Assembly (NCBI GenBank): GCA_965218435.1
Contig: CBDCKW010000005.1
Coordinates: 416,001 to 480,000 of the forward strand
Reading direction: 5' to 3'
Source: Truepera sp.
Lineage (GTDB): Bacteria > Deinococcota > Deinococci > Deinococcales > Trueperaceae
Length of the DNA: 64,000 nucleotides
Shown here: positions 33,345 to 58,600 of the stretch, in pieces
Layout: every line of letters begins with the position of its first letter
Numbering within the stretch: the stretch's first letter is position 1
The notes under the pieces: generated by a model
Seen by the model: only the letters and a program-made list of their open reading frames with translations
What the model was told of the DNA's origin: nothing
Databases searched by the model: none
Program-made: the position numbers and the translations under genes

Positions 33345-33899
33345 ACAACTGGAGGTCTGTGTCAAGTTGTTTCAGGACAGCGTTGGCTTAGGCTATCCAA
33401 GTTTGTTTCGCCAGCGGCCTCATGATTTGTTTCAAGGAAAGACGAAGAAACTTTAGTGAGCCGAACGGGACGGGATAAGTCCATGGCGACGCCGTGCTCG
33501 TACGCCCCCCATTTGTCGAGCACTTTGCCACCAAGCAAGGGCGTAGAGGCAACCTGCACAAGCGTTAGCGACGCTTCGCTGGCGATCGAGGGTAACGGCG
33601 TTAACTTCATCCACGGCTTCTGATTTTACACAACTACCTCTCGAGTCGAACTCCCGCAGGCCGCTCAGCGCCTCGGTCGCGAGTCGGTGTGAGATGCCGA
33701 GCAGCGCTCCTAGCCCCCTGTCATTCCTAACTTATACTCAACCGTTTCTAACGCGTGCGGTTGAGAAAATTCCTTTGCTGGCTCCACCTGTAGCTGCCCT
33801 TCTCGCTTTTGCGTAGCAGCTCACGACCTATGCCATGTTTCGGCGTCGTTGATCGGGTGAAGACGACCAAGGTCCCCGCCTCGGGTCGTTCCAACCACT

Positions 33900-33990: not shown

Positions 33991-34122
33991 GTTACACTGA
34001 TCTGAAAAGCATACCCTCGCATCGCCGTTTGAAGTGATTTCTGGAGCAGTGCCACCTCAATAAAACATCCCTCAGAAAATTTGGTCGGGACGAGAAAACC
34101 GAGTCTGAAACAGTTTAGTCAA

Positions 34123-35849: not shown

Positions 35850-35995
35850 TGGGCAATACTGTTTCAGGTGACTTAAGACTTTATCCATAAATTAAGATGA
35901 ACTCTAAGCTAAAAACTGGTGCGAACTGTTGGGCACACCACTGCCGGTAGGACCGGTAAGTCAGATGTGTTAGCAAGAAGTGCTAACATATCAGC

Positions 35996-36208
35996 ATGAC
36001 TGACGAACTCCGCGCTCAAATTAGGCAGTATCTCAGAGATCATGGTCTTACACAAACCGCACTTGCGATGGAAGTCGGTACCGACCGGCACACCATTAAC
36101 CGTGCACTCAGCACCAACGGGGCCGTACCGCCCATCTGGCAGAAGATGCTAGACGCTCTTGGCCTTGAGCTCGTGTTACGCCCTAAGACTGCAAGCAGGA
36201 CGACGTGA
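35996..36208 (+). CDS. Small XRE-type HTH protein
   Basis: GLTQTALAMEVGTDRHTINRAL, LDALGLEL. Confidence 0.75.
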   Translation: MTDELRAQIRQYLRDHGLTQTALAMEVGTDRHTINRALSTNGAVPPIWQKMLDALGLELVLRPKTASRTT

Positions 36209-36242
36209 GGTGTATGGCAGGGGTGCTGCCACAAGGTGAGTT

Positions 36243-36854
36243 ATGGCGTTAATGCGTTATCCTGTTCGGTTTTACGGGGACCCGATTCTCCGCCGCCGCT
36301 CTGCTCCCGTTCGTGACCTTAAGGCTGACTTTGCTGTACCCGGCTTCGAGGCTGTCAGCTTGCCGCAGCTCACACGCAACATGCTCGAGACGATGTACGA
36401 GGCGCACGGTGTTGGTCTCGCCGCGCCGCAGGTCGGGCTACCCCTTCGCCTGTTTGTTGCTGCCGAATATGCCGACGACGAAAACGAGGGCACCACCTCG
36501 CTCAAGAGCCGGGTGTTGCGCGAGTTCGTGATAGTCAATCCGGTGCTCGAGATTCTCGATCCCTATAAAGAGGCGCGCTATGAAGACGGGTGCCTGTCGA
36601 TACCCGGCGTTTACGAGCCGGGGGTCTTGCGGGAGCGAGCACTGCGTATCCACTATTACGACGAGCATGGCGAACAGCATGTCGTCGAAGCGGACGATTA
36701 CCTTGCACGCGTCTTCCACCACGAATACGAACACCTTGATGGCAAGCTGTATCTCGACCAGCTACCGCCGAGTGTGAAGCAAAAACATCGCGTGTATCTC
36801 GCATCATTACAGCGACAAGCTAAGGCGTACCTGAAGCAACTGGCCGAGCGATAA
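36243..36854 (+). CDS. def: Peptide deformylase
   Basis: GVGLAAPQVG, DGCLSIPG, HEYEHLDG. Confidence 0.93.
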   Translation: MALMRYPVRFYGDPILRRRSAPVRDLKADFAVPGFEAVSLPQLTRNMLETMYEAHGVGLAAPQVGLPLRLFVAAEYADDENEGTTSLKSRVLREFVIVNPVLEILDPYKEARYEDGCLSIPGVYEPGVLRERALRIHYYDEHGEQHVVEADDYLARVFHHEYEHLDGKLYLDQLPPSVKQKHRVYLASLQRQAKAYLKQLAER

Positions 36855-36894
36855 CAATCATCGTGCAACGCTAGCCCTGCAACCGAATAGCGAA

Positions 36895-37036
36895 GATACC
36901 GTTGCCGAGCTCCTATGACGGCACTTCACGAGATGAAGGATGAAGCAGGAAAGTCGGCTAGCACGGTCGAATGCGATGCTCGAAATCCTGAATCATATGC
37001 TTTGGGAGATAATAAGCTTAATTCGGCAACGGTATC
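36895..37036. mobile_element. MITE 1 (142 bp) with IS1182 ends
   Basis: 14-bp IR GATACCGTTGCCGA identical to the neighbouring IS1182 IR; no ORF. Confidence 0.88.
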
Positions 37037-37043
37037 TTCGCTA

Positions 37044-37153
37044 GATACTGTTTCCTAATTGCATATAGGCTTGAACTGCTTAACCCCAACTCCCGTGGAT
37101 AAGGGCATTTATACCGTCTGACCAACTATGTATCTGAATTAGGAAACAGTATC
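37044..37153. mobile_element. MITE 2 (110 bp), related IS1182-type ends
   Basis: 17-bp perfect IR GATACTGTTTCCTAATT; 9-bp direct repeat TCTTCGCTA. Confidence 0.88.
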
Positions 37154-37216
37154 TCTTCGCTAGAGTGTTTCAACTTCCCCAAGGCTCAAACCATTTTACA
37201 GCGACCCTGCTAGCAA

Positions 37217-38143
37217 TTATGACAATGCTGGGGCTGGCACCGCCATACCCATAATGAGTTCGTGGTTCAGCATCGCTGCCGCTTTGGTACCACTGGCTGC
37301 TGCCATAATCACTGAATGCATAGGCATAACCATATCGCCCGCCGCATAGACACCAGGTACACTCGTTTGACCCAGATCATTAACAACGACCTGCAAGCCG
37401 TCATCACTCAGCGTACAACCTAGCTGCTGAGGTAAATCCCCTCGCAAACTCAGGGGGGGCCGCATAAAAACAGCCTGACGCGCCAGCTGGTGACCGTTGG
37501 AAAGATACAAGGCACTCAATTTACCCTGCTGACTTTCGTACTCGGTTACGCTGGCCTCAATGACCTTGACGCCACGGGCATGGAGATCGTCGAGCTGCTC
37601 ATCGCTTAAAGTCGTGTTCCCGCCTGTCAGCAAAACGACGTCACGGCTCCAATTTTGAATGAGCCGCACAAATCCATAACCCAGGTCACCATCACCAAGA
37701 ACAGCTAGCGGCGTGTCTCTCACCTCCCAGCCGTGGCAGTAGGGGCAGGTATAAACGCTTTTGCCCCATAGCTCACGTAAACCCGGCACATCAGGTAGGT
37801 CGTCAGATACCCCGGTTGCTAACAGCAAGCGCTCGGCGCTTAGGGATCCCCCCTGAGCTAAGGTAAGGTGAAACTTCCCCTTGCTCCCGGTTACTTTAGA
37901 TACGCGAGTTTTGAGAAAGTGAACTTCATAAGGCGCGAGCTGCTCGCGTCCAATCCGGCGCAGCTCATCGGGCGGCGTGCCATCACGGGTATAGATATTA
38001 TGGGCGTGGCTTGCTGGGGCGTTACGGGGGGTACTGTCATCTATAACGGCGACATTGCGGCGAGAACGTCCTAAAGCGAGTGCTGCGCTTAACCCCGCAT
38101 TGCTCCCGCCAATGACAGCGACTTCTACGTGTGATAAATTCAC
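37217..38143 (-). CDS. Thioredoxin reductase-like NAD(P)/FAD oxidoreductase
   Basis: IGGSNAGLSAA, CPYCHGWE, TSVPGVYAAGD. Confidence 0.92.
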   Translation of the reverse strand: MNLSHVEVAVIGGSNAGLSAALALGRSRRNVAVIDDSTPRNAPASHAHNIYTRDGTPPDELRRIGREQLAPYEVHFLKTRVSKVTGSKGKFHLTLAQGGSLSAERLLLATGVSDDLPDVPGLRELWGKSVYTCPYCHGWEVRDTPLAVLGDGDLGYGFVRLIQNWSRDVVLLTGGNTTLSDEQLDDLHARGVKVIEASVTEYESQQGKLSALYLSNGHQLARQAVFMRPPLSLRGDLPQQLGCTLSDDGLQVVVNDLGQTSVPGVYAAGDMVMPMHSVIMAAASGTKAAAMLNHELIMGMAVPAPALS

Positions 38144-38398
38144 GGCTACTCCTACAAAACAAGCAAAAAGTGACGATAACAAGCCGAAATGACCTGATTT
38201 TGATAAATGCGTAGATTGTTAGGGGAGAAGGTCAGCTAGAGTCTTGCAATTTATAGATGCACCGTGAGCAAGCGCACCTTGCCGTCGGAACGGCGTAGGC
38301 GAGTTTGTTACGAAGCGCATTTGAGAACACGTTCTCACTATAACAAGGTTTCGTGTGCGCGGTGTGTTATGAGGCGATACGCGCAACAAAATAGGAAA

Positions 38399-40125
38399 GA
38401 TACCGTTGCCGAATTAAGCTGCGAGGCTAGCAAAACGTGAGACACGCGTTTTAGAGCAAGGTTTTTGCTCGAACCAATCTCTGAGGCGAGCTGCATTGAT
38501 GGCAGTGGCTACGGCGATGTTCTGAAACTGCGTTTTGGGCTGTCCGACGTAGCGGGAGCGCCGTAAACCGAATGCCCTAACGCCTTGCGACAAGGTGCCT
38601 TCGATGCCCGAGCGCTTGCTGTAGATGGCGCGCCACTCGGGCGTTTGCTGGTTGTGCCGGGCGGCTTGGAGCGCTTCGTGCTTTTTCCTAGGTTTGAAGG
38701 CAACTGAACGGGCCTGCTTCGTCACGCGGTGGCAACGTGCCCGCTGCTCGCAGACCAAACAGTCGTTTTGGGCGAACAGCACGACAATCAAGTCGTTGTC
38801 GTTGCGCTTATCTTTGCGTTCCGACCAATACACGCTTTTCTTGTTGCTAGGGCAGGTTACGTATTTGGCATCCCAATCGATGGCGAAGTCGTCGATGTTG
38901 TAAGCCCCCGCAGGTTTAGCCTGCCAACGGTGATTGGCGGGTAAGGAACCATGCAACTTCACGTCAAAGCGTTTCTGACTTTCCACTAACAGTTCGGTGT
39001 CCATATAGCCTGTATCCACAAGATGTACGGCTGGCAGAATGTTCTTACTTTTCAAGCCGCGGTGGATATTGGGAACGAGCTGGTTGTCGTGACGGTTCGG
39101 TTGACTGGTCGCTACATGAGTTATGAGGTGAACGGCGTCTTCTTCACACGTTTCCGTGACGTGTACTTTGTGGCCCGTCCAGCGCAGGTCGCGTTTGCTA
39201 CCTAAGCGCACGTCGGGGTCATAAGGTGAAACGAGAAGCACACGGTTCGGGGGCAAGTTCTTGGCGTCGTGCCAGCGCACCTCGCCGTCGTCGAGCCAGT
39301 ACTGCTGCACCCACATGCGCCTGAGGAGTTCGACAGCCTCCAGCTCGGCTAGGTTGGACGGCGCATCGGAAGCGTAAACGCGCTCTAGCAAGTAAAACCC
39401 GTCCTCACCCGTGATCCCAGCAAGGTCGCTAATTTTCTCTTTCCCCTTGGGTAATCTGAAACTTTCAAATCGTTCACCATAACGCTCGAACCAAGTCTCG
39501 GGAACCCATGCGCTAAGCCACTTCGGTTCGCGGGTAGCCAGCGTGTTGAGAACGAGCCGCATCGTTTCAACCAGGTTGCCGAGCCGGTTCAAGCTTCTGA
39601 CTTTGGCGAGCACGTGGGTCGAGTCGGTTCTGGCTTGACCGCGCTTTTTGATCAACCCCTTCGCAGTGCAGGCCGCTAAAAGTTCGTTCAGCAGTCGGTA
39701 TTCGGCCTGACCTTCAAGGAGCCGTTTGCGAAACTTGCTCAGAACCGTAAAATCAAAGCCTGAATCGATAAGCTCTAGGCCCAGCGCATACTTCCAGTCG
39801 ATACGATTTCTGACCGCATCGGCAGCTTCCCGGTCGGGCAGGTCTTCGGCAAATTGCAGCACAGTCACTAACGCAAGCCGCCAGGGTGCTTCAGCCGCTT
39901 GTCCCACAACCGGGTATAGGTCGGCGAATAACTCGTCACGGTAAACGCCCGCTAGCTCATCGCGTAAATGAATTGCCAAATTACCTCTGCGATAAATAGC
40001 TTTAGCAACACGGGCGGTTTCTTCAGGGACAAACAGCGGGTTACTCGGTTGAAGCGACATAGTGGCCTCCTAAGTCGCTTCAGTTTAGACTTGCCAACTT
40101 GGTTTTTTGATTCGGCAACGGTATC
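38399..40125 (-). mobile_element. IS1182-family element, copy 2 (1727 bp, diverged isoform)
   Basis: Same IR and length as copy 1. Confidence 0.92.
38414..40060 (-). CDS. IS1182-family transposase
   Basis: 548 aa paralog of 34138-35784. Confidence 0.92.
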   Translation of the reverse strand: MSLQPSNPLFVPEETARVAKAIYRRGNLAIHLRDELAGVYRDELFADLYPVVGQAAEAPWRLALVTVLQFAEDLPDREAADAVRNRIDWKYALGLELIDSGFDFTVLSKFRKRLLEGQAEYRLLNELLAACTAKGLIKKRGQARTDSTHVLAKVRSLNRLGNLVETMRLVLNTLATREPKWLSAWVPETWFERYGERFESFRLPKGKEKISDLAGITGEDGFYLLERVYASDAPSNLAELEAVELLRRMWVQQYWLDDGEVRWHDAKNLPPNRVLLVSPYDPDVRLGSKRDLRWTGHKVHVTETCEEDAVHLITHVATSQPNRHDNQLVPNIHRGLKSKNILPAVHLVDTGYMDTELLVESQKRFDVKLHGSLPANHRWQAKPAGAYNIDDFAIDWDAKYVTCPSNKKSVYWSERKDKRNDNDLIVVLFAQNDCLVCEQRARCHRVTKQARSVAFKPRKKHEALQAARHNQQTPEWRAIYSKRSGIEGTLSQGVRAFGLRRSRYVGQPKTQFQNIAVATAINAARLRDWFEQKPCSKTRVSRFASLAA

Positions 40126-40169
40126 TAGCGAAGAGTGTTTCAGAGGTGAACCGAACAGCCCGAGCCGGG

Positions 40170-40300
40170 CGGGGTCAGTTGACCGTGACCGAGCAGGAAA
40201 GGCACGAGGTCAATGTGGATTTCGTCGAGCAGGCCAGCGTCGAGACATTGCTGCACGATAGTCGTACTGGCGACCGCGACGTTCTTGCTACCCAAAACCG
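40170..40300 (-). pseudogene. RibD_C/DHFR-like fragment
   Basis: KNVAVASTTIVQQCLDAGLLDEIHIDLVPFLLG. Confidence 0.75.
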
Positions 40301-40377
40301 TGGCCGGGCTGCCCTTCGTTGCCTTGCCTGCTTGATGCTCACCCGCTTCTTTACCTCCTGAAAGTGCAGAACACGGT

Positions 40378-40941
40378 TCAAGCGCTGTAAGGCGGTTGCC
40401 CCGCGGGGCGATATTCCAGCAGCAGGACGCGCCCGTCCAGAACCTTGGTCGAGAGCAGGTCGAAGCCGATGTCGGGCAACTCTTTGAAAAAGGGCTCCAC
40501 CCCTGTTTGCGGGAGAATCAGGGGGCAGACGACGAGCTTAAGACGATCTACCAGGCCAGCGGTAAGCAGTTGCTGAACCAGCGACACGCTGCCCAGGGTC
40601 CGCAACTCGGGGCCGACTCTACGCTTCAGTTCACCTACAAAGCCCACCAGGTCATCATGGACGATTTTTAGCTCCGGCCAATCTGTTGTCTCCAGAGTGT
40701 GCGAGAACAACCAGCCTGGCGTTGTGCTCATCGTTTCCCATCCTTCGTCCCGCAACTCGGTAGGTAGGCCGTTTAGCATCTCGTAGGTCTTACGTCCGAC
40801 GAGCATTCGGTGGGGAACGGCCGTATTTGTCTTAATCCAGTCGTCAAAATCGGGGCCAGAATAGCCGTAATAACCCGGAGACCGCTGGCCCCTGGCATAG
40901 CCGTCGAGCGTGACGATCAGTTCACAAACAAGCTCGGTCAC
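40378..40941 (-). CDS. Dihydrofolate reductase-like (RibD_C) protein
   Basis: VTLDGY, GRKTYE, GSVSLVQQL, GLVDRL. Confidence 0.88.
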   Translation of the reverse strand: MTELVCELIVTLDGYARGQRSPGYYGYSGPDFDDWIKTNTAVPHRMLVGRKTYEMLNGLPTELRDEGWETMSTTPGWLFSHTLETTDWPELKIVHDDLVGFVGELKRRVGPELRTLGSVSLVQQLLTAGLVDRLKLVVCPLILPQTGVEPFFKELPDIGFDLLSTKVLDGRVLLLEYRPAGQPPYSA

Positions 40942-41039
40942 GTGCTACCTCCAATTGAATTTCGGCGATCATAAAAACAGCTTAAAATCCTAAGCGCTCA
41001 AATTCGCAACAGTCTAGCCACGCGTGTTTCAGTGAATAC

Positions 41040-41258
41040 TTACCTCTTGTCGTTCTGCTCCTGGTAGTAGCCAACGAGAGCGTTCGCATGTCCATGTCCG
41101 ATGTTGTGTTCTTTTTTAAGGGCGCTCACCATTTCCAAGTGCTTTTTCCCCTTCATCTCACCTAAGATTTTCAGCCAGTGGTCGATGGGCTGACCGTAGG
41201 TCTTTTCGATAGACGGAAAGTAAGAGGCCGGGCCTTTTACCTTAGGTGTGTCGGTCAT
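41040..41258 (-). CDS. DUF4287 family protein
   Basis: KGPASYFPSIEKTYG, GHGHANALV. Confidence 0.88.
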   Translation of the reverse strand: MTDTPKVKGPASYFPSIEKTYGQPIDHWLKILGEMKGKKHLEMVSALKKEHNIGHGHANALVGYYQEQNDKR

Positions 41259-41347
41259 TGAAGCTACCTCCTGAAAATCATTGCAACAATAACTCTTGGT
41301 TAACGCACGCTTGCTGACAGCATTCAAATCAGTCAGAAGGTGACAGG

Positions 41348-41833
41348 CTATGCCAAACTTTTAACCAGTTCAACGAGCTGGTCGAGGCACAGCCCCCATC
41401 CTTCAAAAAAGCCCATGTCCTCGTGCTGCTGCCGTCCCGCTGGGTCTTTGTGTTTAGCAATAGCCGTGTACTTGGTTCCTGTCGCTGTAGGCTCGAGCGT
41501 TACGATGGCGGTAAAAAAAGGTTGTTCGCTCGGTCTATAGCCTGGAGCGAGCGCGTTGGTAAAGACCAGCTTCTCGTTGGGAACAATCTCCAAGTAGCAT
41601 CCCATGTTGGGAAACGCTTGCCCTTCAGGTGACTGCATAACGGTGTAGAACTGACCGCCCGGTTGCAGGTCGATCTCGCACTCGGAAATCGTCCAGGGAG
41701 CTGGGGCAAACCACTTTTTGATGTGTTCGGGCTGTGTCCAAGCTCGCCAGACAAGCTCAGCGGGCACGTCGATCTCACGCTCTAAAACGAGATCGAGGGT
41801 GGGGTCAATGTCAACATACAGTGGTTTACTCAT
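41348..41833 (-). CDS. SRPBCC/AHSA1 family protein
   Basis: [25 protein letters not shown]. Confidence 0.9.
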
Positions 41834-42167
41834 GACTTTCCTCCTTGACGAGTTCTTTGACGTAGCTGTCGAACTGATCGAGCCTTTTTTCCCACAGTCC
41901 AAGCTGCACCTTCAGCCACTGCTCGGCGCTTTCAACTTGTTCGGGTACAAGATGAAACGTCCGTATCCGGCCTACTTTTTCTGAGCGAACCAGTCGGCCC
42001 CTTTCTAGTACCTGAAGGTGCTGCATAAACGAAGGTAGTGCCATCTCAAACGGCTCGGCCAGCTCGGTTACTGAGGCAGGGCCACGACTAAGCCGCTCTA
42101 AGACTTGCCGCCGGGTCGGGTCGGCAAGGGCCTGAAAAGTCTGGTCGAGGTTCTGATAGTTAGGCAC
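41826..42167 (-). CDS. ArsR/SmtB family regulator
   Basis: [17 protein letters not shown]. Confidence 0.92.
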
Positions 42168-42192
42168 TTGCCTAAGCGTACATCAAAAGGAC

Positions 42193-42210
42193 ACTTAGGT
42201 CAATACCTAA
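42193..42210. promoter_or_regulatory. Palindromic ArsR-type operator
   Basis: CTTAGGT-caat-ACCTAAG just upstream of the ArsR gene. Confidence 0.65.
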
Positions 42211-42318
42211 GCGTTGGCTCAGGCTTAATCAGCTCGTGTGCTTAATGAAAAAATCTTCTGCCGATAACCCAACCGCTATGCTGCTTTAGATCATGCTCTG
42301 CGGCTGTTTTTAACGCTG

Positions 42319-42756
42319 TCATGATTGGGTAGATAGATCCGAAACAAAACGGAGCTGTACCTCATCGGCTTCACTCAAACCCGACTGCTCAAAGGCTTCT
42401 TGCAGCGTGTCGTAGCGAGCGACGTAACTAACCTGGCCGTTCTCAACCCGGTAATGAGAGGCGAGCTTAGCTTGGCTCACGATGTCACCGGTCATCACGT
42501 CACCGGTGGTTAGGTCGCGCCAGACGCCGAGTTGTTCATTGACCACCGTTTTACCTCGAGCGAAACTACGACGCGTTTCTAGGCTCAACCCTGCTTGAGC
42601 AAGCCAGTCTCTAAGCATGTCGCGTCCGAAGGCGGAGCCGCGCGGCCCGACCAGCTCTATCTCAGGGTGCGAAAGGTCGAGTAGGCGCTCTACCTCAGCT
42701 GTGTTGACGGTTTCTTCCCAAATACGGACAATCTCAGCAGCTTCTTGAAGTTTCAT
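42319..42756 (-). CDS. SnoaL/NTF2-like protein
   Basis: WEETVN, IELVGPRG, VARYDTL. Confidence 0.75.
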   Translation of the reverse strand: MKLQEAAEIVRIWEETVNTAEVERLLDLSHPEIELVGPRGSAFGRDMLRDWLAQAGLSLETRRSFARGKTVVNEQLGVWRDLTTGDVMTGDIVSQAKLASHYRVENGQVSYVARYDTLQEAFEQSGLSEADEVQLRFVSDLSTQS

Positions 42757-42795
42757 CGTTTCTCCAGTCTTTGACTTGTCTCAATAACAAGCTTA

Positions 42796-42816
42796 ATGTA
42801 TGTATAGCACATACAT
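42796..42816. promoter_or_regulatory. Palindromic MarR-type operator
   Basis: ATGTATGT-atagc-ACATACAT between divergent genes. Confidence 0.65.
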
Positions 42817-42852
42817 ATTTGTTTTGCACGTACTTGATGATATCATTGAACT

Positions 42853-43365
42853 GTGAACTCAGAAAAAGTTGTCCAGTTACCCGACAATGCGTTGCCAAGT
42901 GACGCCGGAAAAGCGCTGTTCCGGTTGGGGAGATTCCTCAATAAGCAGTCCTTACCCGAATCGCTAAAAACTCGAACCGCAGGGGGGATAGAGCTTTCAC
43001 AGATTTTGACGGTTCAAGCTGTTGAAGCGGTTCTCGAGACCGGTCAAGAGGCAACTGTGGGCGCGGTCGCGCTGAACCTTGGTCTCGAGCCCTCAACCGC
43101 CAGCCGTATAGTCGCGGAAGCTGTACAGCATGGCCTGTTAACCCGTGGTGCGTCTCAAGCTGACGGACGGCGCAGCCTACTTGAACTCACGCAGGCAGGG
43201 CGGAGCTTGGCAGAAGATGCCGCTGACTATCAGCGGTCGGTCTTCGAGTCGGTTACAGATAGTTGGGCAGCTGAGGAACGTAAAGAGTTCGCACGCCTGT
43301 TCGTCATGTTTGTCGAAAGATTAGCTAGTTTGCCCACAAGTGAAGGTATACAAGAAGCAAAATAG
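42853..43365 (+). CDS. MarR family regulator
   Basis: LEPSTASRIV, DGRRSLLELT. Confidence 0.9.
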   Translation: MNSEKVVQLPDNALPSDAGKALFRLGRFLNKQSLPESLKTRTAGGIELSQILTVQAVEAVLETGQEATVGAVALNLGLEPSTASRIVAEAVQHGLLTRGASQADGRRSLLELTQAGRSLAEDAADYQRSVFESVTDSWAAEERKEFARLFVMFVERLASLPTSEGIQEAK

Positions 43366-43520
43366 CGAAGCGTGTTACAGCCCAAACGGGTTATCGAGTT
43401 AGCTGCTCTTTATGCGCGCCATGTCGTCGGGGTTCGTGACCAAGGCGAGCCGTTACCACCGCTTTGGTCCCAACCCAGAACCAGACTTCAGCAGCGATTT
43501 CCATCTGGCGCGTCGTGAGC

Positions 43521-44054
43521 TTAAGCAGGCAGGTAGGTCAACCTGAGCACATCCTCGCCAATCCGATCATGAGCCACAAGGCGGAGCGGCGGCCGGGGTC
43601 CGGCAAAATAGGGCTTGCCGTGACCTAGCACGACCGGGTGCAGGTAGATTCGGTACTCATCGATCAGACCAAGGTCAGTGAGGTTTTGCGCCAAGTTCGG
43701 GCCAGCGACTTCGATCTCCCCGTCGCGCTCAGCCTTCAGCTCGCGGATCGTGCCCTCGAGATCAGCCTTAACAAGTCTGGCGTTGGGGCCGACCGACGTG
43801 AGCGAGCGTGAGACGACCCATTTCGGCTGGTTTCGCCACGCCGCTGCGAAGGCGTGTTCCGCTGCGTCCCATTCAGGCTGATCGTCATCCCAGTAACGCA
43901 TGAGCTCATACACATTGCGACCGTAGACACTGCCCACCTGCCTCTGAGCCTCTTCGATGAAGTGGCGGAAGAGCAGAGGGCTTGGCACGGGCAACGCCGT
44001 ATGATCGACGTAGCCGTCCAATGATTGATTCATCCCGAACACGAGCTTAGCCAT
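43521..44054 (-). CDS. Dihydrofolate reductase-like (RibD_C) protein
   Basis: MNQSLDGYVD, GLIDEYRIYLHPVVLG. Confidence 0.9.
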   Translation of the reverse strand: MAKLVFGMNQSLDGYVDHTALPVPSPLLFRHFIEEAQRQVGSVYGRNVYELMRYWDDDQPEWDAAEHAFAAAWRNQPKWVVSRSLTSVGPNARLVKADLEGTIRELKAERDGEIEVAGPNLAQNLTDLGLIDEYRIYLHPVVLGHGKPYFAGPRPPLRLVAHDRIGEDVLRLTYLPA

Positions 44055-44247
44055 TGCCTGTACCCAATAAGGTTTTCATATGTGGGTTACCTCCCAAGGT
44101 CAAACCTAGCAAGATTACGACTGCGCTGCTTCTTGAATCTTGCGCGTTTAAGGAACTCGCTTGTTTATCTTGTTCGTCAAGCGGTTGGCTAGCACGCCTG
44201 TGAATGAGAGTAGAGAAGAAACACTCTTCGCTAGAGTGTTTCTTCTC

Positions 44248-45129
44248 TCATGACAGGTAACGAACGATACGTTCACACCGAGCAGGGTCACAAGTGAGAC
44301 CGACACTTAGCCCCCACAGCCAGTAGTCCACGCAGCGAACGTAGGTCCATAAACGCGTCAGCTCGTCACCTAGCTCCGCAGCTTCAACCAACGTTCGGAA
44401 ATGCGTCTCGAAACCACCTTGCGCTTCGATATCCTCCAAGCGACACCAGAAAAGCTGGGCGACCCCAAATTCAGGCTTACCCACCACAACTTTCGGATCG
44501 ACAACTAGCCACGGTTCGCGCTCGCTTGCAAGGGTATCAAGGTAATGAAGGTCGTAGTTCACCAGCAGGGTACCCGTGCTATCAGCCAGCTGAGCGGTAA
44601 GCTCACAGGTGTGGTCAAGAACTTGTCTGGGCAGAGCTTGACCGTATTTTGCCCAACGCTGCGGCATCATCTCGAGGGCTTCTTGCCCCCACTCCCAAGT
44701 CGTCATGACGCCAACCGGAGCAGGAACGGCTAGGCGGCGCAGTAATTGACCTGCTACGGGTATGGCCTCTTTAATGAGAATGTCGTTGAGAGAACGTTTG
44801 AAGTCCAACCGCTCTAATACCATCGCGCCGTGTTGTGGCGAGGTTTCCAGTAACCGAACAGCTCCCCGACCGCCCCAGATGGCGAGTGCGAGAGATTCGG
44901 TGCGAGTAGAGCCGTCCAGCCAAGAGACTTTGAGAACGCACGCTTCCTCTCCTCTCTGGACCGGAAAAGCTAAACTTAGACCACCGTGCATCACGGGACC
45001 ATCAACCCGCAAATCCCACTGCCGACACAGCATCTCAACAAGGGCCGGTAAGTGGTCGAGCCATGCCTGGCCCGCTACGCCCTCACGAGCTACCGTATCG
45101 GCAGCAAAGCGTCTGGGAACTACAATCAT
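44248..45129 (-). CDS. Aminoglycoside/hydroxyurea phosphotransferase (APH(6)-like)
   Basis: AWLDHLP, VLERLD, NYDLHYLD, WLVVDPK. Confidence 0.85.
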   Translation of the reverse strand: MIVVPRRFAADTVAREGVAGQAWLDHLPALVEMLCRQWDLRVDGPVMHGGLSLAFPVQRGEEACVLKVSWLDGSTRTESLALAIWGGRGAVRLLETSPQHGAMVLERLDFKRSLNDILIKEAIPVAGQLLRRLAVPAPVGVMTTWEWGQEALEMMPQRWAKYGQALPRQVLDHTCELTAQLADSTGTLLVNYDLHYLDTLASEREPWLVVDPKVVVGKPEFGVAQLFWCRLEDIEAQGGFETHFRTLVEAAELGDELTRLWTYVRCVDYWLWGLSVGLTCDPARCERIVRYLS

Positions 45130-45216
45130 AGAGGTACTTTACAGCATCGATTTGCGTGTGCTCAGTAGAAATCTGAAATGGAATAGCGAAGAGTGTTTCA
45201 ACTTGTCTTCAGATGT

Positions 45217-45663
45217 TCAGTTATCTTCAAACCAGTCTTCAAGTGCTTTCCACTCGTTCTCTCTGACGGGAAAGTTCGTTCCTCTTGCCTGGGCAAAGAT
45301 CGAGAGATTCCATAAGTCGGGGTCACACTGCAAAAAATCGCGGTAGAGCGGCTTCTCGACGATGACCTTTTCATATTTTACTTTGACACGCGGATGGACT
45401 CTGAGACCGTCGTTAGGATCTGTCCAGTAGCTTCGTCCCTGCACGGAATCCGGGCGCACAACGGGATCGGTCGTGACAATTCCTAAAGCGTAGACGCCTG
45501 CCTTTTTACCGGAGATCCAGATCAGCACTCTATCGCCCATTTTGATTTTTGCATGGTGCTGTTTGCAGTTCCAGAACTCCTCGGCTTCTACGGCTAAAGA
45601 GGTGTGGATGTCGTAGAGGTTCGGATTTGCCTGAAATATCCAGGTAGCTTGGCTGCTCGTCAT
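45217..45663 (-). CDS. EVE domain protein
   Basis: WIFQANP, GDRVLIWISG, GTNFPV. Confidence 0.8.
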   Translation of the reverse strand: MTSSQATWIFQANPNLYDIHTSLAVEAEEFWNCKQHHAKIKMGDRVLIWISGKKAGVYALGIVTTDPVVRPDSVQGRSYWTDPNDGLRVHPRVKVKYEKVIVEKPLYRDFLQCDPDLWNLSIFAQARGTNFPVRENEWKALEDWFEDN

Positions 45664-46628
45664 GCTTGGTTTTCCTCTGGTAAAGCATCGAGGGAGGTTA
45701 ATTCTCGTCCGTCTACGGCGATGTACCTCGGGTAAGGAGGCAAGACGTCGCGTCCGTAGAAGTGGGGTATTTCCGAAGGGTTAACGGTGCGGCCTTGCCA
45801 AGGCAGGGGTGGGGCGTACATGATGGCCGCTTCACGCTCAACGCATAAGAGTGACGACATCAGGGTAGCGTCGTCGTCTAGGTGATAGCGGTGCAACTGT
45901 GGGAGTTGTGTGGTGACACCCAAACCGTGATTGATAAGGAAGGTCTGGGTTGCCAACATTGACGCCCTCGTCCATAGACGTTCGTGGTCGGTGGGGAGCA
46001 AGATGTACCCTGCCGACCGCACACTGTTTGTAAGTTCGCACCCTCGTGTGATGAAGAGGCGTGCGCTCGCACCCGAATTGCTGGCTCCGTAGGATGGGTT
46101 GGTATAAAACGCGTCGAAGGTACCGATAAGTTCTTTTGGAGGCGGATCGAACACGTTATAAAGCCTGCCTGCAAACCACTCTGAGAAATGATGCCCTTCG
46201 GCGAATGTCCTGGCGACCTCGAGGAGACAGTCGTCAAAATCGAGTAGCGCCATCTGTGCTGGACCCCTAAGTAGGCCGTGGCTACTGAGTAGACCCAGGA
46301 GTAGACTGGTTCCGTCATGATCGCCGACAAACACGACGCGCTTGCCCGCCAGATGCGGCGCAATCAGCTTGACCTGACATAAGAGGTCGCTTCCGCGCAT
46401 CGGAATCTGATCGAAGTCCCTTAGCGACTCCGGGCGGGCATCTTCCCAAAGTGCGAGCAGCTGCTCCTCTTCGGGCGTGACTTGCCGATAAACAGCGTTC
46501 TTCAGAAGACTGCCGAGTGCTGCGTAAGCGCCCGTTCCTCCTGCTACCGTTACGTCTGAGGATGACGATATATGAGCAGGCATCCTAGGATGCCTGCTCA
46601 TATTAAGTCCTTGGTCGGGCGACCTCAT
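45660..46628 (-). CDS. BpsA-like (DUF43) SAM/dcSAM-dependent transferase
   Basis: LRDFDQ, VFVGDHDGTS, LDFD, YNVFDPPP, FYTNPSY, LFITRG. Confidence 0.75.
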   Translation of the reverse strand: MRSPDQGLNMSRHPRMPAHISSSSDVTVAGGTGAYAALGSLLKNAVYRQVTPEEEQLLALWEDARPESLRDFDQIPMRGSDLLCQVKLIAPHLAGKRVVFVGDHDGTSLLLGLLSSHGLLRGPAQMALLDFDDCLLEVARTFAEGHHFSEWFAGRLYNVFDPPPKELIGTFDAFYTNPSYGASNSGASARLFITRGCELTNSVRSAGYILLPTDHERLWTRASMLATQTFLINHGLGVTTQLPQLHRYHLDDDATLMSSLLCVEREAAIMYAPPLPWQGRTVNPSEIPHFYGRDVLPPYPRYIAVDGRELTSLDALPEENQA

Positions 46629-47206
46629 GCGGCCGCCTCCAGATCGTCACCCTGCTGGTAGTGATCCCAGAGATTGAGCGTTTTGATCCGCATCTCGACG
46701 AGCTCGACACTGGCCCCGTACTTGCCAGCGATGTGCGCGGCACTGTCACCTCGGTAAACCGCTTTGGCGACCTCTTTTGAAGGAAGTAGAGCGGCAGCAG
46801 CCGTAAACTTGGCTTCTTGCTCTTCTTCCTGATAGTAGGCGGCGCGTCCGCTGGAGCCGATGCTCACAGGGGTATGTCCGTGGTAGTGATGTGCAACCTC
46901 TTCGAGAAGTGTAACGCGGGCACGCTCAGGCGTCTGTTGACGGTTTAGCACTACAAAGAGTTTCCCTATAGGCAGTTCGTGGCTCATCCCAGACCACTCT
47001 TTGGCGTCTAAACGGTCCAACTCCGCCAGAACCTCTTCAGATAAGTTAGGAATCTCGTCGTGATATTTCAACACGACGCCTAGCTCGGCTTGCAAAGTTA
47101 AGGGGTCAAAAGGCTCATAGGATCCGACGCCTGCTTTTGCCCTAAGTGACCTGGCGCTCTCCTCGTAGTGATGCATGATGTCTTTAGTCAGTTGGGGCTT
47201 GGGCAC
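46625..47206 (-). CDS. ImmA/IrrE family metallopeptidase (EExxH variant)
   Basis: RARVTLLEEVAHHYHGH, EQEA...AAAALLP, IAGKYGAS. Confidence 0.85.
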   Translation of the reverse strand: MPKPQLTKDIMHHYEESARSLRAKAGVGSYEPFDPLTLQAELGVVLKYHDEIPNLSEEVLAELDRLDAKEWSGMSHELPIGKLFVVLNRQQTPERARVTLLEEVAHHYHGHTPVSIGSSGRAAYYQEEEQEAKFTAAAALLPSKEVAKAVYRGDSAAHIAGKYGASVELVEMRIKTLNLWDHYQQGDDLEAAA

Positions 47207-47223
47207 GTCATCTCCTTATCTCC

Positions 47224-47838
47224 TTAAGCAGTTTCTTCGTTCGCAGCGGCTTCATAAGCAAACTGGAACATCTGTGCAAGATTTTTAGCGGCTTTGGGGC
47301 TTAGTTTGGGATCAGCACGCAAGAAGGCAGATACCTGATGCGGCACATTCGTGGGCGGAACCATCTCTGCTAAATCCTGAGCAGTCTCTACACCACGAAG
47401 CTCTCTATGCAGATTGACCCCAAAATGCTCTTCCATCTGAAACGAGATGCCCATAGCCTCGAGGATGCGTTGTGCCCGCTCGACAGTCACGCCGTGGTAC
47501 TCATTGCGCTCGTCACGTGATACTTGCGCGTCGGATACGCCAAGCTCTTGGGCAAGTTCTTTTTGACTCCAACCTCGGGCAATACGTGCGCCGATCAGCC
47601 ACCGACCCACGCTTTCTAAGCTCTCGAGCGTCCCAAGGTCGCCCCGCTTCATGTTCTCGTAAGCCAAGACCTCCTCCTCGAGCTGGGCTCGAAACGAAAG
47701 TAAAGGATGCAGGGCGCGCTCGAGCGCGTCACCCGTCAGGCCAGCCTCTACAAGTTGGTTTCTTTGAGCCTCCAGCTGTATTTTTCCTTCCTCGAGCTGT
47801 TTGAGCATTCTTTGGTATTCGCTTTCGGTGCGGATCAT
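47224..47838 (-). CDS. XRE family HTH regulator
   Basis: ARIARGWSQKELAQELGVSDAQVSRDE. Confidence 0.88.
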   Translation of the reverse strand: MIRTESEYQRMLKQLEEGKIQLEAQRNQLVEAGLTGDALERALHPLLSFRAQLEEEVLAYENMKRGDLGTLESLESVGRWLIGARIARGWSQKELAQELGVSDAQVSRDERNEYHGVTVERAQRILEAMGISFQMEEHFGVNLHRELRGVETAQDLAEMVPPTNVPHQVSAFLRADPKLSPKAAKNLAQMFQFAYEAAANEETA

Positions 47839-48380
47839 CTTAGACCTCCTTCCTTTTGTAGTAAGACGACCCCCTTCTGGGCAAAGGTGGCGCGTTGTAA
47901 TCGAAACGCTGAGGGGAACGTCAAGGGTTGACCGTAGGGATCGGTGATCCCTGAAAACTGATCAAAGTGGGGGAAGAGTTCGACCCGGTAACGGTGCCAC
48001 ATGGGGAGCTGCTTTTTGATATGCCCCCGATAAGGTCGCCGCGTTGCCGGATCCCAAGTCCAGACCTTATGGGGATCGAGAGCGTTGAGCTGCCGCGTGA
48101 GATCGTCTAAGGCAACCGCGTCACAAGTAAAGTAGCCGTCGATATCATTGGGATGAGCTTTATCTTCGACAAAAGAACCGTCTAGTACGACTTCAGCAAT
48201 TCCTACCTCCCATAACTGCCTGACAAGAATCTCGGCCTGGTTGACCAATTGCAAGCGCCAGTCTCGATCCCAGCCTTCGCGGTCGTTCTCTACTAAGGAC
48301 GATTCACGGAGTTGGGAGAAGGTGGTGGGGTAGTCACCTGCTGGTAGCAGGCCCCGGTTATCGAAGTCAGGAATCGTCAC
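47835..48380 (-). CDS. DUF6932-like nucleotidyltransferase-fold protein
   Basis: IPDFDNRGLLPAG, LDGSFVEDKAHPNDID, KGVV. Confidence 0.75.
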   Translation of the reverse strand: MTIPDFDNRGLLPAGDYPTTFSQLRESSLVENDREGWDRDWRLQLVNQAEILVRQLWEVGIAEVVLDGSFVEDKAHPNDIDGYFTCDAVALDDLTRQLNALDPHKVWTWDPATRRPYRGHIKKQLPMWHRYRVELFPHFDQFSGITDPYGQPLTFPSAFRLQRATFAQKGVVLLQKEGGLR

Positions 48381-48389
48381 TTCGATATA

Positions 48390-48408
48390 TTATCATAAAT
48401 GATGATAA
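48390..48408. promoter_or_regulatory. Palindromic operator upstream of the five-gene operon
   Basis: TTATCAT-aaatg-ATGATAA about 10 nt before the GTG start. Confidence 0.6.
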
Positions 48409-48513
48409 ATTACTAGACGATAAACATTTATGTTAATTTCTGGATTGTTAAACGCTGTAGCGTTGGCAGCAGGTGTAGATTGCTCAAGCAGAACTACAAC
48501 CATCTGCTCAGTT

Positions 48514-48828
48514 TTAGTGAGGTAGAACTTGTATCCGGTACCGCCCCACTCGGTTCGCCGCAGGCTCGAGCCCTTCCAAGAGCCCTAGCTCGACAAGCCT
48601 TTGCAGCGCCTCGGTCGCGTTCCGGTGCGAGATGCCTAGCAGCCCCTCGAGCTGCCTGACCGACACCTCAACCTCACCGTAGGGCTCGAGATAGAGGTAA
48701 ACGAGCCGCGTTGTCAGCGTCTCATCTTTAAGTGCTTCAGACAGGTGCGGCGGGTCTCTAGGCACGTCACGTCCGTCACTAGCGCCAAGGTGTGTTGGGT
48801 TTCCCCTCAGTTCGACCGCCTGGTACAC
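48514..48828 (-). CDS. Winged-HTH hypothetical protein, possibly truncated
   Basis: SVRQLEGLLGISHRNATEALQRLVELGLL. Confidence 0.55.
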   Translation of the reverse strand: MYQAVELRGNPTHLGASDGRDVPRDPPHLSEALKDETLTTRLVYLYLEPYGEVEVSVRQLEGLLGISHRNATEALQRLVELGLLEGLEPAANRVGRYRIQVLPH

Positions 48829-55634: not shown

Positions 55635-58600
55635 ATGACTTTCGAGCGCCGCCGAACTGCCTCTAAAAACCTTGGTGACGACTACCGCGATGTTATCGGG
55701 CTTGAGTACCTCATCGAGATGGTGCGTGCCCCTGAAGATGTTCTCTGGGTGAGCTTCGAGGCCGATGATGCAGGCAGCCTCGATGACGTCTATGTTGGGC
55801 GTACTGAGGGCGTCGAGTACATCCAAGCCAAGTATGCGGTTGAGCCGGGTGAGTGGTCATTGGAAGATCTTTTAGAACGCGAAGACGGCCCCCGTGCCCG
55901 CAGCCTGTTGCAGAAGTGGGTGGACTCTTGGCGTAAGGTAAGAAGCTTAGGGCACGCTTATACGCTAACCGTACGAACACGCCGCCGCCCGAATAGTGAA
56001 CTGGCCGCTTTATTTGAGGGTAACACCTTGTCCACCAGGATTCTCGATGGCGAAAGCTTCGGCGTAGAGAAAGCTGCCGTTTTCGGCCACCTCGGTGAGC
56101 ATGGTTATGAAGCAGCCGACATCCGACGGTTTCTTGGCGAATTACGTTTCGACTTCGAAGGCGTAGATGTGGAGGCGAAGCGAAACGACCTTAAGCGCGC
56201 TTTCCTCGCGCTCGGGGCGGAGGAGGAGAACTGGCTCGCGCTGCTCGACGCTCTGCGCACTTGGGTCCGCTACAAACAGCCCGGATCTGACGGTCTCGTT
56301 AGGCTCGGCGACATGCGCAAGGCGGCACGCTTGTGGAGCCCTGAGGAGGTGCGCCTGCCTCAAGACTTTCCCCTGGACGCTACGATCTACATCCTCGATT
56401 ACGGTCGGCGTCGGCAGGTCGAAACACTTTTAGAGGAAGCGGCAGGCAGTATGACGCTCCTACGTGGCGCGCCGGGCAGCGGCAAGAGCAGCTTTCTCTC
56501 CTGGCTCGCGGGCAACCCACCTATGGGCGTTAATCACGTGTTCCGGCATCACTGTTTCTTGGGCCTCGAGGACGATACGGCCGGTGCCAGGTTGGACGCG
56601 GATCGAGCCGCCTTGGCCCTCCTCGCCGAGGTAGTCACCGCAGCCCGCGAGCTCATCTCCGAGCCTGAGAAAAACAACCCGGCGGCGCTCGAGCGTGCCT
56701 TGCAAGAGGTAGCAGCGGCAGTGCACGCCGACGGGGGCAAGGTGCTCATCATTCTTGACGGGCTCGACCACGTGGTGAGAGAACACGACCTCGAGGAGGC
56801 CCGGCGACTGCTCAACTACCTGCCTTCCCCCGCTCCCGAGGGTCTTCATATTTTGATCGGCACGCAGCCCGTACAAGACCTGCTCGCGCCCCGATTCCAG
56901 CGCACCCCCAACACCGAGGTCTGGGTGGACGGGTTTAGCCTTGAGGGCACTGCCGCGTACCTTATGGCTCATGCGCAGCAGCACATCGACGACACACTTG
57001 TGCAGGCCGTCCACGAGAAATCCGATGGGAACCCCCTCTACCTGCACTATCTGGTTGAAGCAACGGTCGGCGCAGGTGAGGTGCTCACTGACCGCGCGGT
57101 GGCCCGCCTGCCCGCGTACGGCGGCGACATCGCGGCCTACTACCACGCCCTTTGGAACCGCCCGAACAGCGGACCGGTCAGCGACCGTGAGGCCGGAGAG
57201 GCCGTGCGCTTGCTGCTCGCGCTGCTCGGGTGGGCTAGCTTCGCGCTCCCCCGGGAGGACCTCGGGTACTTCGCCCGCCAGCTCGGGGTACCCGTCGTAC
57301 AGCTGAGCGCCGCTCTGCGTGACGCGACGCATCTACTCGACAGGCGTCGGCTGGAGCAAGGCACCCTTCGGCTCTACCACGAGAGCCTGCGCCGTTTCGT
57401 GCGCGAGCAGGATGAGGCCAAGACGTATCGCGAGACGGCGCTCGAGGCGCTCCTAAGCTGGGTTAAAGAGCGCGCCGATACGGCGACACGTTGGAGTGCC
57501 GAGTGGGAGCTCGAGCTGCTCCTCGGCAACCCAGAGCCACTGCTCGCCGGAGTGACGCGCGATTGGGCAATCGCGTCTCTCGACGCCCACCGACCCCACC
57601 AACGCCTTCTAGAGCTTTCACAATTAGCTGTTGAGGTCGCCGCCGATGCGGGTGACTTAGCTGAGCTTCTGAGGCGAGGTTGGCTCCTTCACTATGTAGG
57701 CGAGGCAACCGGTCATGAACGCCGGGACGCCGCGGGCTTTCATCTAAGTGCACGAGTAAGTAATGGCATGTCCAGAGACGAACTGACCAATATCCTGGCG
57801 AGCAAGAACGTCTACGGAGCGCAAAGTCTCGCAGCACTCGCGCACGCCGCCTTTCGCGATGGTTCTACCGAAGCGCCACGTCAGCTGCTCGACATGCTCG
57901 AGCATCAGCACCGCAAGGATGAGGCTTTCCTTACAACGCTTTTCAAGCTGCTAGCCTACGCCGAAATCGGTCCAGCCGGAGTGCTCACCTACTACATCAC
58001 TAACCTTAAGCACACGAAATCTACAGTGAGGTTTAATCAAGACTCGCCGTACCGCTGGCGAAGTGGATTCCGAACTTACCTGGACACGCTTACCCTGACT
58101 GGACAGGAAGAAGCCCTTCGTCACGTTGGCGAGGCGGAAGACTTAAGCCTTGCCGACCGTCAGACGGTTTACGACGCACAACTTTCTTTGGTCGTTAGCG
58201 AAGAGCGAGTAGAAGACGCTGTGAGCTTCGTAAATCAAGGCACTCGCTCAGCCTACGGTCAATGTGTCGCGCTAGCTCTAGGGCTTACGACACTACCTCC
58301 AGAAGGCGAGACGCTGCTCAGGCGCGATCCGGCACCTCGCGAAGTAAGATACAACGACGATGCAGGCTGGTCGAGCGACCACCTGCAGCTGGTGTGGTCG
58401 AGCGTCTGGTGGGCGGCACATGGTAGGCATGAAGCCCTTGAAGCCGAGGCCGAGAGGTTAGAGGGGCTCGGCATTCATGGTTGTTTCCTCAACTATCTAA
58501 TTCGGCTTGGGATGCGTGTACACGCATCCCTCGAAACGTCGAGCGAACTGGACTTATCCGCCGTCATCGCAGAACTACAGTCGCTCGTGCACCCTAAGTA

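Follow-up and report, generated by a model that had tools for sequence, protein, structure and literature searches.

The 64,000-nucleotide stretch of Truepera sp. DNA analyzed here (hereafter "the window": assembly GCA_965218435.1, contig CBDCKW010000005.1, positions 416,001 to 480,000 of the forward strand) carries on its minus strand, between positions 45217 and 48408, an operon of five co-oriented genes in which a nucleotidyltransferase precedes an XRE-type repressor, an ImmA/IrrE-type protease, a transferase having the fold of the polyamine synthase BpsA and an EVE-domain protein. The operon is real, conserved and apparently undescribed. Its genes and the elements preceding them are, in the direction of transcription:

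48421-48436, minus strand: operator 1, of the TTAAC-N6-GTTAA type with 1 mismatch (motif search).
48387..48408, minus strand: operator 2, degenerate (48390-48405), including a 7-bp palindrome and overlapping TAATAT (motif search).
48387-48392, minus strand: −10-like TAATAT, 6 nt before the GTG start (sequence inspection).
47835..48380, minus strand: DUF6932 pol-beta-like nucleotidyltransferase (NTase), predicted toxin of a grafted toxin–antitoxin (TA)-like pair, accessory to the core (Pfam, invariant columns).
47224..47838, minus strand: chimeric XRE repressor/antitoxin (Pfam HTH_3, tail conservation).
46625..47206, minus strand: ImmA/IrrE (M78) protease-like protein with a C-terminal helix-turn-helix (HTH) (Pfam, alignment).
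45660..46628, minus strand: BpsA-fold class I S-adenosylmethionine (SAM) transferase, predicted base-modifying writer (Pfam, structure model, motifs).
45217..45663, minus strand: EVE (PUA-like) domain protein, predicted reader (Pfam, invariant aromatics).

The five open reading frames (ORFs) lie where the first-pass annotation of this DNA had placed them, with the three ATGA overlaps that it had described (47835-38, 46625-28 and 45660-63) and with its 17-nt gap, which corresponds to 47207-47223 and contains a GGAG/AAGGAG ribosome site. All five products have Pfam matches over the curated cut-offs, namely DUF6932 (1e-27) for the nucleotidyltransferase, HTH_3 (2e-11) for the XRE, Peptidase_M78 (2e-12) for the protease, BpsA_C (2.5e-14) for the transferase and EVE (8e-17) for the EVE protein, and purifying selection acts on all five genes, the ratio of non-synonymous to synonymous substitution rates (dN/dS) being 0.05-0.13 with respect to two relatives (L020 and L021). 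The lack of a ribosome-binding site before the first gene, also noticed earlier, fits a leaderless start; furthermore, the proximal operator covers the −10-like hexamer, which would be consistent with a leaderless, autoregulated transcript. A sigma-70 scan found no minus-strand promoter. As to the palindromic operator postulated earlier, the 7-bp palindrome does exist at 48390-48408 but the conserved register differs, consisting of two copies of TTAAC-N6-GTTAA.

The gene-neighborhood search that had been suggested as a check found the operon genes together in several phyla. One database search yielded 109 transferase homologues, 4 of which are fused to an EVE domain, and a broader profile, taken to E<=1e-30, gave 149 clusters (50% identity), its weaker matches including true BpsA and other methyltransferases. 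A total of 101 transferase loci were retrieved, made up of 19 genome loci, 80 of the 81 metagenome loci and 2 viral ones, several being near-duplicates and many being short. Among the 19 named genome loci, 12 display the order XRE-ImmA-transferase-EVE (5 Chloroflexota, 4 Deinococcota, 2 Armatimonadota and 1 Actinomycetota), and of the 101 loci 57 have members of ImmA clusters, 41 EVE, 37 XRE and 10 the NTase. The genes of the presumed five-gene system do therefore co-occur elsewhere, but the conserved unit has four genes, the NTase being present in only 10 of 101 loci; the conserved core is XRE, ImmA-type protease, BpsA-fold transferase and EVE, and its occurrence is patchy. In fact, 7 of the 364 genomes examined in the window's phylum contain the transferase, as against 0 of 127 other genomes of the family, and the protease with its characteristic EExxH motif is found in 9 of 364, next to the transferase in all 7 genomes that have one. 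The two EExxH-protease genomes without an intact transferase are G200, with a decayed copy, and G170, with an intact trio but no cargo. In a second phylum (401 genomes) the 3 strong protease matches, one of which is the seed genome, all have the four-gene operon. Phage genomes gave one unannotated partial match in 50,697 records, and no RNA sequencing run was found to hold the operon, a result without bearing on its expression. The decayed operon of G200, a genome of the same genus (L129:4700-6800), has a truncated NTase and a truncated transferase and no EVE gene, and sits in an island of PIN, Doc-like, RelE/HigA-like and type I restriction-modification (RM) genes, the names of which were judged from translations and not by a family scan.

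The NTase is a later graft from a common TA-like pair, the antitoxin of which has been fused to the repressor tail. In a quick tree that omits rows shorter than 225 aa and 9 near-duplicate loci, the NTase-led loci form one clade (10 rows, one of them cut off upstream; Shimodaira–Hasegawa-like approximate likelihood ratio test, SH-aLRT, 99) nested among the core loci, and NTase pairs also stand alone, on which grounds the five genes were rejected as an ancestral unit. The NTase homologues are far commoner (2783 of 2819 candidates), and the partner of the stand-alone genes is an HTH protein of 140-170 aa with little sequence beyond the HTH (L117, L118, L121, L123, L125 and L128). Residues 1-137 of the window's XRE resemble these antitoxin-HTH proteins, and residues ~160-204 are the conserved tail of the core operon, homologous to the tails of the core XREs.

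The operator changed together with the DNA-binding head of the repressor. All 11 NTase-led loci have the type A operator (TTAAC-N6-GTTAA, <=2 mismatches) upstream, vs a shuffled mean of 0.95, and none of the 20 core loci does; the type B operator (TTTCA-N4-TGAAA) is found before 16 of the 20 core loci, vs a shuffled mean of 2.4, and before none of the 11 NTase-led ones. Since the motifs were derived from the same loci in which they were later counted and two starts (L022 and L024) were reset by eye, a point to be set against the interpretation given below, it is the reciprocal exclusion that constitutes the informative part of these numbers. Of 10 related NTase-led loci, 9 have an operator at −26 to −28, matching the position of operator 2 (about −28), and one has it at −32. 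A search for a wider repressor regulon, made with no control, returned 146 genome sites with <=1 mismatch and 3 tandem pairs, none of them at an examined target.

G68-S69, D79-x-D81 and E134 are invariant in 26 NTase homologues, so that the pol-beta GS and DxD elements, from which the enzyme had originally been recognized, are present together with the third carboxylate. The Atlas points to NTP_transf_2/Polbeta at 0.82, which is a lead only, and no PDB sequence match was found. The N-terminal half matches weakly (1e-10) PDC-M63A of the PADLOC candidate PDC-M63, and the stand-alone DUF6932-HTH pairs likewise combine an NTase with an antitoxin-HTH; unlike both, the antitoxin here has an additional, predicted cleavable tail and stands at the head of a larger operon.

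The tail leads to the protease, a 193-aa protein whose M78 domain has the catalytic Glu and the third-ligand Glu. Its motif is E102-E103-x-x-H106 plus E129, with E103, H106 and E129 invariant, and 69 of 69 homologues have EExxH instead of HExxH, i.e., a Glu in place of the first zinc His. The protein aligns with IrrE and CapP in the peptidase and HTH parts only and has no C-terminal GAF domain; because of this and of the altered motif, induction by single-stranded DNA (ssDNA) or DNA damage, as had been proposed from the HTH-ImmA pairing, is not supported, it being reported that the GAF-less ImmA and Rir are not stimulated by ssDNA and that Rir gave no cleavage (PMC12828697). As for the cleavage itself, L/F-R-A stands in the C-terminal 75 residues of 36 of the 37 XREs and L173-R174 of the window's XRE is a plausible predicted cut site; CapP is described to cut CapH at F82-R83 (10.1101/2022.04.27.489752) and IrrE to cut DdrO at L106-R107 (PMC12828697). 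As in CapH/CapP operons, IrrE/DdrO and ImmA/ImmR, an XRE with a C-terminal hydrophobic-Arg tail is accompanied by an adjacent M78 protease and by operators placed over the promoter. Unlike in those systems, the motif is EExxH, the GAF domain is absent, the operon is co-oriented and the cargo is transferase-EVE instead of a cyclic-oligonucleotide-based antiphage signaling system (CBASS), DISARM or a mobile element. In its working the operon would resemble an immune operon under CapH/CapP control that carries a cargo of the GNAT-EVE type, and it belongs to neither family.

According to automatic annotation the transferase would be a stress-induced branched-polyamine synthase, and BpsA is indeed its best match in both sequence and structure (model with a predicted local distance difference test score, pLDDT, of 89.9; Z 26.4 with 5xnc, Foldseek E 3e-15), being followed by the N6-methyladenosine (m6A) methylase METTL5 (Z 19.7, root-mean-square deviation 2.9, 197 aligned residues) and by PH1948 (Z 18.6). 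With BpsA (EC 2.5.1.128; PMC12979288; PDB 5XNC and 6J27) it shares the fold, RP..FDQ and, of the three aspartates of motif I, two, the equivalent of D160 being invariant; BpsA is defined in that review by a GDDD, in which Asp159 and Asp160 position the aminopropyl group of decarboxylated SAM (dcSAM), and by an acidic C-terminal carrier tail. On the other hand, motif IV is NPPY in 101 of 109 homologues (NPPF and NPPW also being seen) instead of the DPVE/DPPE of true BpsA (6 of 6), and motif I, G102-D-H-D105 in the window, is kept in the family as GD-x-D with the middle Asp usually replaced and GDDD surviving in 2 of 109. The carrier-tail pattern DEE-x-(S/T)T is found in 0 of 105 homologues shorter than 400 aa vs 6 of 6 true BpsA, the C-terminus of the window protein having a few acidic residues but being disordered and unconserved. 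True BpsA constitutes a separate long-branch clade (support 100, quick tree), and the present family has another gene context, is not restricted to thermophile genera and has an EVE partner that a polyamine synthase would not need.

In amino-group SAM transferases of the N6-adenine/N4-cytosine type motif IV is (N/D/S)PP(Y/F/W), and NPPY marks enzymes acting on planar amines, e.g., the N6 of adenine. The GD-x-D of motif I is that of BpsA and not the glycine-rich motif I of methyltransferases, so that the transferred group may not be a methyl. A SAM decarboxylase could be detected in 2 of 5 and again in 2 of 5 of the host genomes tested; three operon-bearing genomes that are >=99% complete gave none, and the weak SAM-decarboxylase-like match of the window genome (L119, G000:C9:1651041-1651337), which is possibly inactive or repurposed, has an Ala at the Ser that is the self-cleavage residue of this enzyme; SAM itself is therefore the likelier donor, and in the window copy the transfer of a methyl or 3-amino-3-carboxypropyl group from SAM appears more likely than the use of dcSAM. 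Polyamine synthesis was rejected as the principal explanation in view of the departures from BpsA in motifs, tail and clade: the transferase is probably not a polyamine synthase, and we consider such a function very improbable in spite of a single archaeal GDDD relative located beside a SAM decarboxylase gene. This relative, from a Woesearchaeota locus (L019:6581-10378), has the SAM decarboxylase directly upstream of a GDDD/NPPY transferase, downstream of which follow Ham1, an AAA_17 kinase and a radical SAM enzyme that binds B12, and looks like a self-contained aminopropyl-nucleotide pathway; it is the only SAM-decarboxylase-adjacent locus among the 101, two other GDDD loci being without one.

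The EVE protein has the invariant aromatics W8, F10, Y17, W31, W49, Y58 and W80 and, judging from an EVE survey (PMC7641849), would bind a modified base. In distant relatives it is replaced by an alternative partner of ~190 aa. Among the 76 loci with >=700 nt downstream, EVE is present within 5 kb in 36, the alternative partner in 33 and neither in 7, and no locus map shows both. The alternative partner has no profile match with EVE (probability 0.25) and no Pfam or PDB sequence match; its model (pLDDT 91.4) has no Foldseek match at E<=0.001, its ten best alignments being YTH or McrB-N domains (weak, Z 3.2-3.8), and its third Atlas match is a cluster with 12% PF24405 Pua-like members. Homology between the two partners is unsupported, the likeness consisting only of weak YTH/EVE-type structural matches. 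Distant loci contain also an AAA_17 kinase near the transferase (17 loci), an ImmA of the HExxH type accompanied by a membrane protein of two helices (the latter in 14 loci), a PIN-like gene together with a larger ImmA, radical SAM, AsnB, HhH-GPD, Nudix, MazG, Ham1 and guanylate kinase; these partners suggest a base or nucleotide chemistry, and motifs and partner swaps, taken together, point to a modified-base writer-reader pair.

Some of these assemblies deserve separate description. The neighbors of short transferase variants in L073, L076, L077, L084 and L085 are radical SAM/SPASM, HhH-GPD glycosylase, AsnB, Nudix, MazG and guanylate kinase, a set reminiscent of a cluster for base hypermodification, and P0284 is a radical SAM-transferase fusion. 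In L100, L101, L080, L013 and L114-L116 the transferase and a PUA-like gene have as neighbors a PIN-like gene, an ImmA of large size and another, diverged paralogue of the PUA-like gene, this variant being located on two viral contigs and on large plasmids. Finally, L060:5955-8374 and its relatives encode an HExxH ImmA, a two-helix membrane protein (weak AbiZ match, 6e-4), the transferase and a PUA-like gene, and represent a candidate protease-activated membrane effector variant.

The partner logic of these loci, EVE or PUA-like gene plus AAA_17 kinase, is also that of the predicted (PIN)-GNAT-EVE/ASCH/AAA_17 toxin-antitoxin modules described in the EVE survey (PMC7641849), in which a group-transfer enzyme is likewise coupled or fused to EVE and in which a PUA-like partner and an AAA_17 kinase (found here in relatives) and frequent RM neighbors also occur; unlike those modules, the operon has a SAM-dependent BpsA-fold NPPY transferase in place of an acetyltransferase and is under protease-repressor control. 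It could be imagined, accordingly to this likeness, that the transferase is a toxin modifying tRNA, rRNA or protein, targeted or neutralized by EVE, and that the operon persists by post-segregational killing as an addiction or dormancy device. The transferase-EVE fusions, the plasmid and two viral-contig copies, the integrases nearby and a fold close to that of RNA methylases fit this possibility, whereas Ham1, MazG, Nudix and kinases suggest free nucleotides as substrates; the loss of transferase and EVE from the same-genus copy does not discriminate. We regard addiction as quite unlikely.

A different arrangement of the same parts would be a signal relay, in which the transferase makes a modified-nucleotide signal, EVE or its PUA-like substitute senses it and activates the protease, and the protease frees whichever effector is attached, be it the NTase toxin, the two-helix membrane protein, the PIN-like protein or the downstream TIR/Argonaute genes. 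Three ImmA-type proteins are tied to the transferase-reader pair (EExxH with XRE, HExxH with the two-helix membrane protein, and the larger ImmA with the PIN-like gene), no co-oriented HTH was seen before the HExxH variant in 12 loci, and the GAF sensor that IrrE and CapP possess is missing from the protease. A precedent exists in PUA-Cal-HAD (10.64898/2026.01.15.699771), where binding of N6-methyl-deoxyadenosine monophosphate (m6-dAMP) to PUA triggers the system and the PUA family is linked to N6-adenine methylases, modified-base operons and MazG. PUA-Cal-HAD resembles the operon in having a PUA-type reader of a modified adenine nucleotide, from which the operon's predicted reader differs in being an EVE domain; moreover, calcineurin and HAD are absent here and the writer is encoded in the operon. 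Against a relay speak the many distant loci consisting of transferase, reader and kinase without any ImmA, the trio of G170 that persists without EVE and the fact that XRE-ImmA pairs are generic regulators of many operons, and we consider it unlikely.

The reading that we prefer is that the four-gene operon with its grafted NTase is a switchable anti-phage or anti-plasmid system that marks bases, and to this chain as a whole we assign a probability of about one half. The XRE would bind the two operators over its own leaderless promoter until a stress or infection signal, probably other than ssDNA, causes the EExxH protease to cut the repressor tail at the predicted L173-R174 site. The transferase thereby made would alkylate an exocyclic base amine, most likely adenine N6 as suggested by NPPY, fold and partners, in either a free nucleotide or a nucleic acid, and EVE would bind the marked product and direct or limit its action; in Deinococcota the cut would in addition free the DUF6932 NTase from its antitoxin, leading to growth arrest. 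Of the inducible anti-phage or TA system with writer and reader that had been envisaged at first, what fits the motifs, the partner swaps and an often defense-like context is retained, but not the induction by damage.

The genomic context was scanned for 146 of 170 picked ORFs in 20 of 23 long loci (L048, L049 and L088 being left out). RM, Argonaute, TIR, AbiJ/DUF499, MrfA-type or RES-TA/ThiF genes are found within 7 kb in 9 of the 20 loci, the L028 call resting on a weak Mrr match. In 10 of 29 loci (5 near-duplicates dropped) EVE is followed directly by a co-oriented gene for TIR (3), MazG (2), AbiJ-NTD, Argonaute, AAA_17 kinase, RES or Uma2.

Several observations weigh against a defense role or against individual steps of the scheme. 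The count of 9 of 20 loci carries no background control, and the remaining scanned loci have mobile-element genes only (4), a PIN toxin only (1) or neither (6, of 20). The four core genes encode no nuclease or other recognized effector, so that how a base mark would act against phages is left unexplained, and deletion of PDC-M63AB, the PADLOC candidate to which the NTase has its weak match, had no defense effect in one study (10.1101/2024.12.20.629700). The EExxH motif replaces a zinc-binding His, and consequently the protease may be inactive and act by binding only, as suggested for Rir (PMC12828697). The trio of G170 (L130:3531-5304), an intact NTase-XRE-EExxH protease set without transferase or EVE, is placed among housekeeping genes, and in the second phylum 5 weaker protease matches in 4 genomes, from related XRE-ImmA pairs, have no cargo within 1.5 kb. 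With regard to the writer, the NPSY of the window copy (N177-P-S-Y180) is unique among the 109 homologues, and NPPY enzymes also methylate proteins (PrmC/HemK).

The combination had been noted not to be a named system, and no PADLOC model covers the transferase or EVE: PADLOC-DB 2.0 gave only weak, generic matches (capH 4e-5, capP 1e-6, mad2 0.02, besides the PDC-M63A already mentioned; none for EVE), as did NCBIfam for the operon proteins. The transferase is not mentioned in the text of the EVE survey PMC7641849 and 3 of its supplements. No description of the operon was found in the literature, covered mostly in its non-subscription part and to the exclusion of Figure S1/Table S1 of the PUA-Cal-HAD preprint, which may include the distant PUA-like variant.

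The operon is part of an array (window 34105-48473) in which a 25-bp palindromic site connects small gene modules, with a perfect copy at 44218-44242, to which the first of the two following elements is compared:

45175..45199, minus strand: joint site of the array, following the operon; 10/10 in the left arm, 5/5 in the core and 5/10 in the right arm.
48449..48473, minus strand: possible half-site of the array, preceding the operon; 2/10 in the left arm, 4/5 in the core and 7/10 in the right arm.

The first of these begins 16 nt past the last stop, as previously reported, and the site matches 5 times in the window vs 0.22 expected; the upstream half-site is weak, comparable scores occurring elsewhere in the window. 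Two 548-aa transposase genes are located at array joint sites. The next downstream module (window 44248-45129) is an APH_6_hur family kinase (Pfam), not linked to the operon in relatives, though an APH-family gene is found near the L021 operon. A small winged-helix-like ORF lies upstream of the operon at 48514-48828, a 55-nt stretch of this region recurring with 80% identity 15 kb away (33666-33720). The window contains also a 1971-aa ORF (55635-61550), and no tRNA was found in its 64 kb.

A bolder proposal, tentative and rather unlikely in our estimate, is that a polyamine-synthase fold has been repurposed to produce N6-aminocarboxypropyl- or N6-aminopropyl-adenine as a self-made immune signal or antiviral nucleotide, which would be read by interchangeable EVE or YTH-like domains and relayed via the EExxH protease to plug-in effectors. 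If this were true, it would represent a new class of nucleotide-signaling defense in bacteria and some archaea.

Databases label the transferase as a polyamine synthase, whereas a new chemistry of base modification is suggested by its motifs and partners. The operon is a natural test of the activity of an EExxH ImmA/IrrE variant and of the triggers available to a protease without GAF domain, and it records how the fusion of two domains brought a TA pair under a predicted protease switch while the operator changed accordingly. The ligand is still open for most EVE proteins, and the operon, as a matched writer-reader pair, may offer a way of finding that of a bacterial EVE domain.

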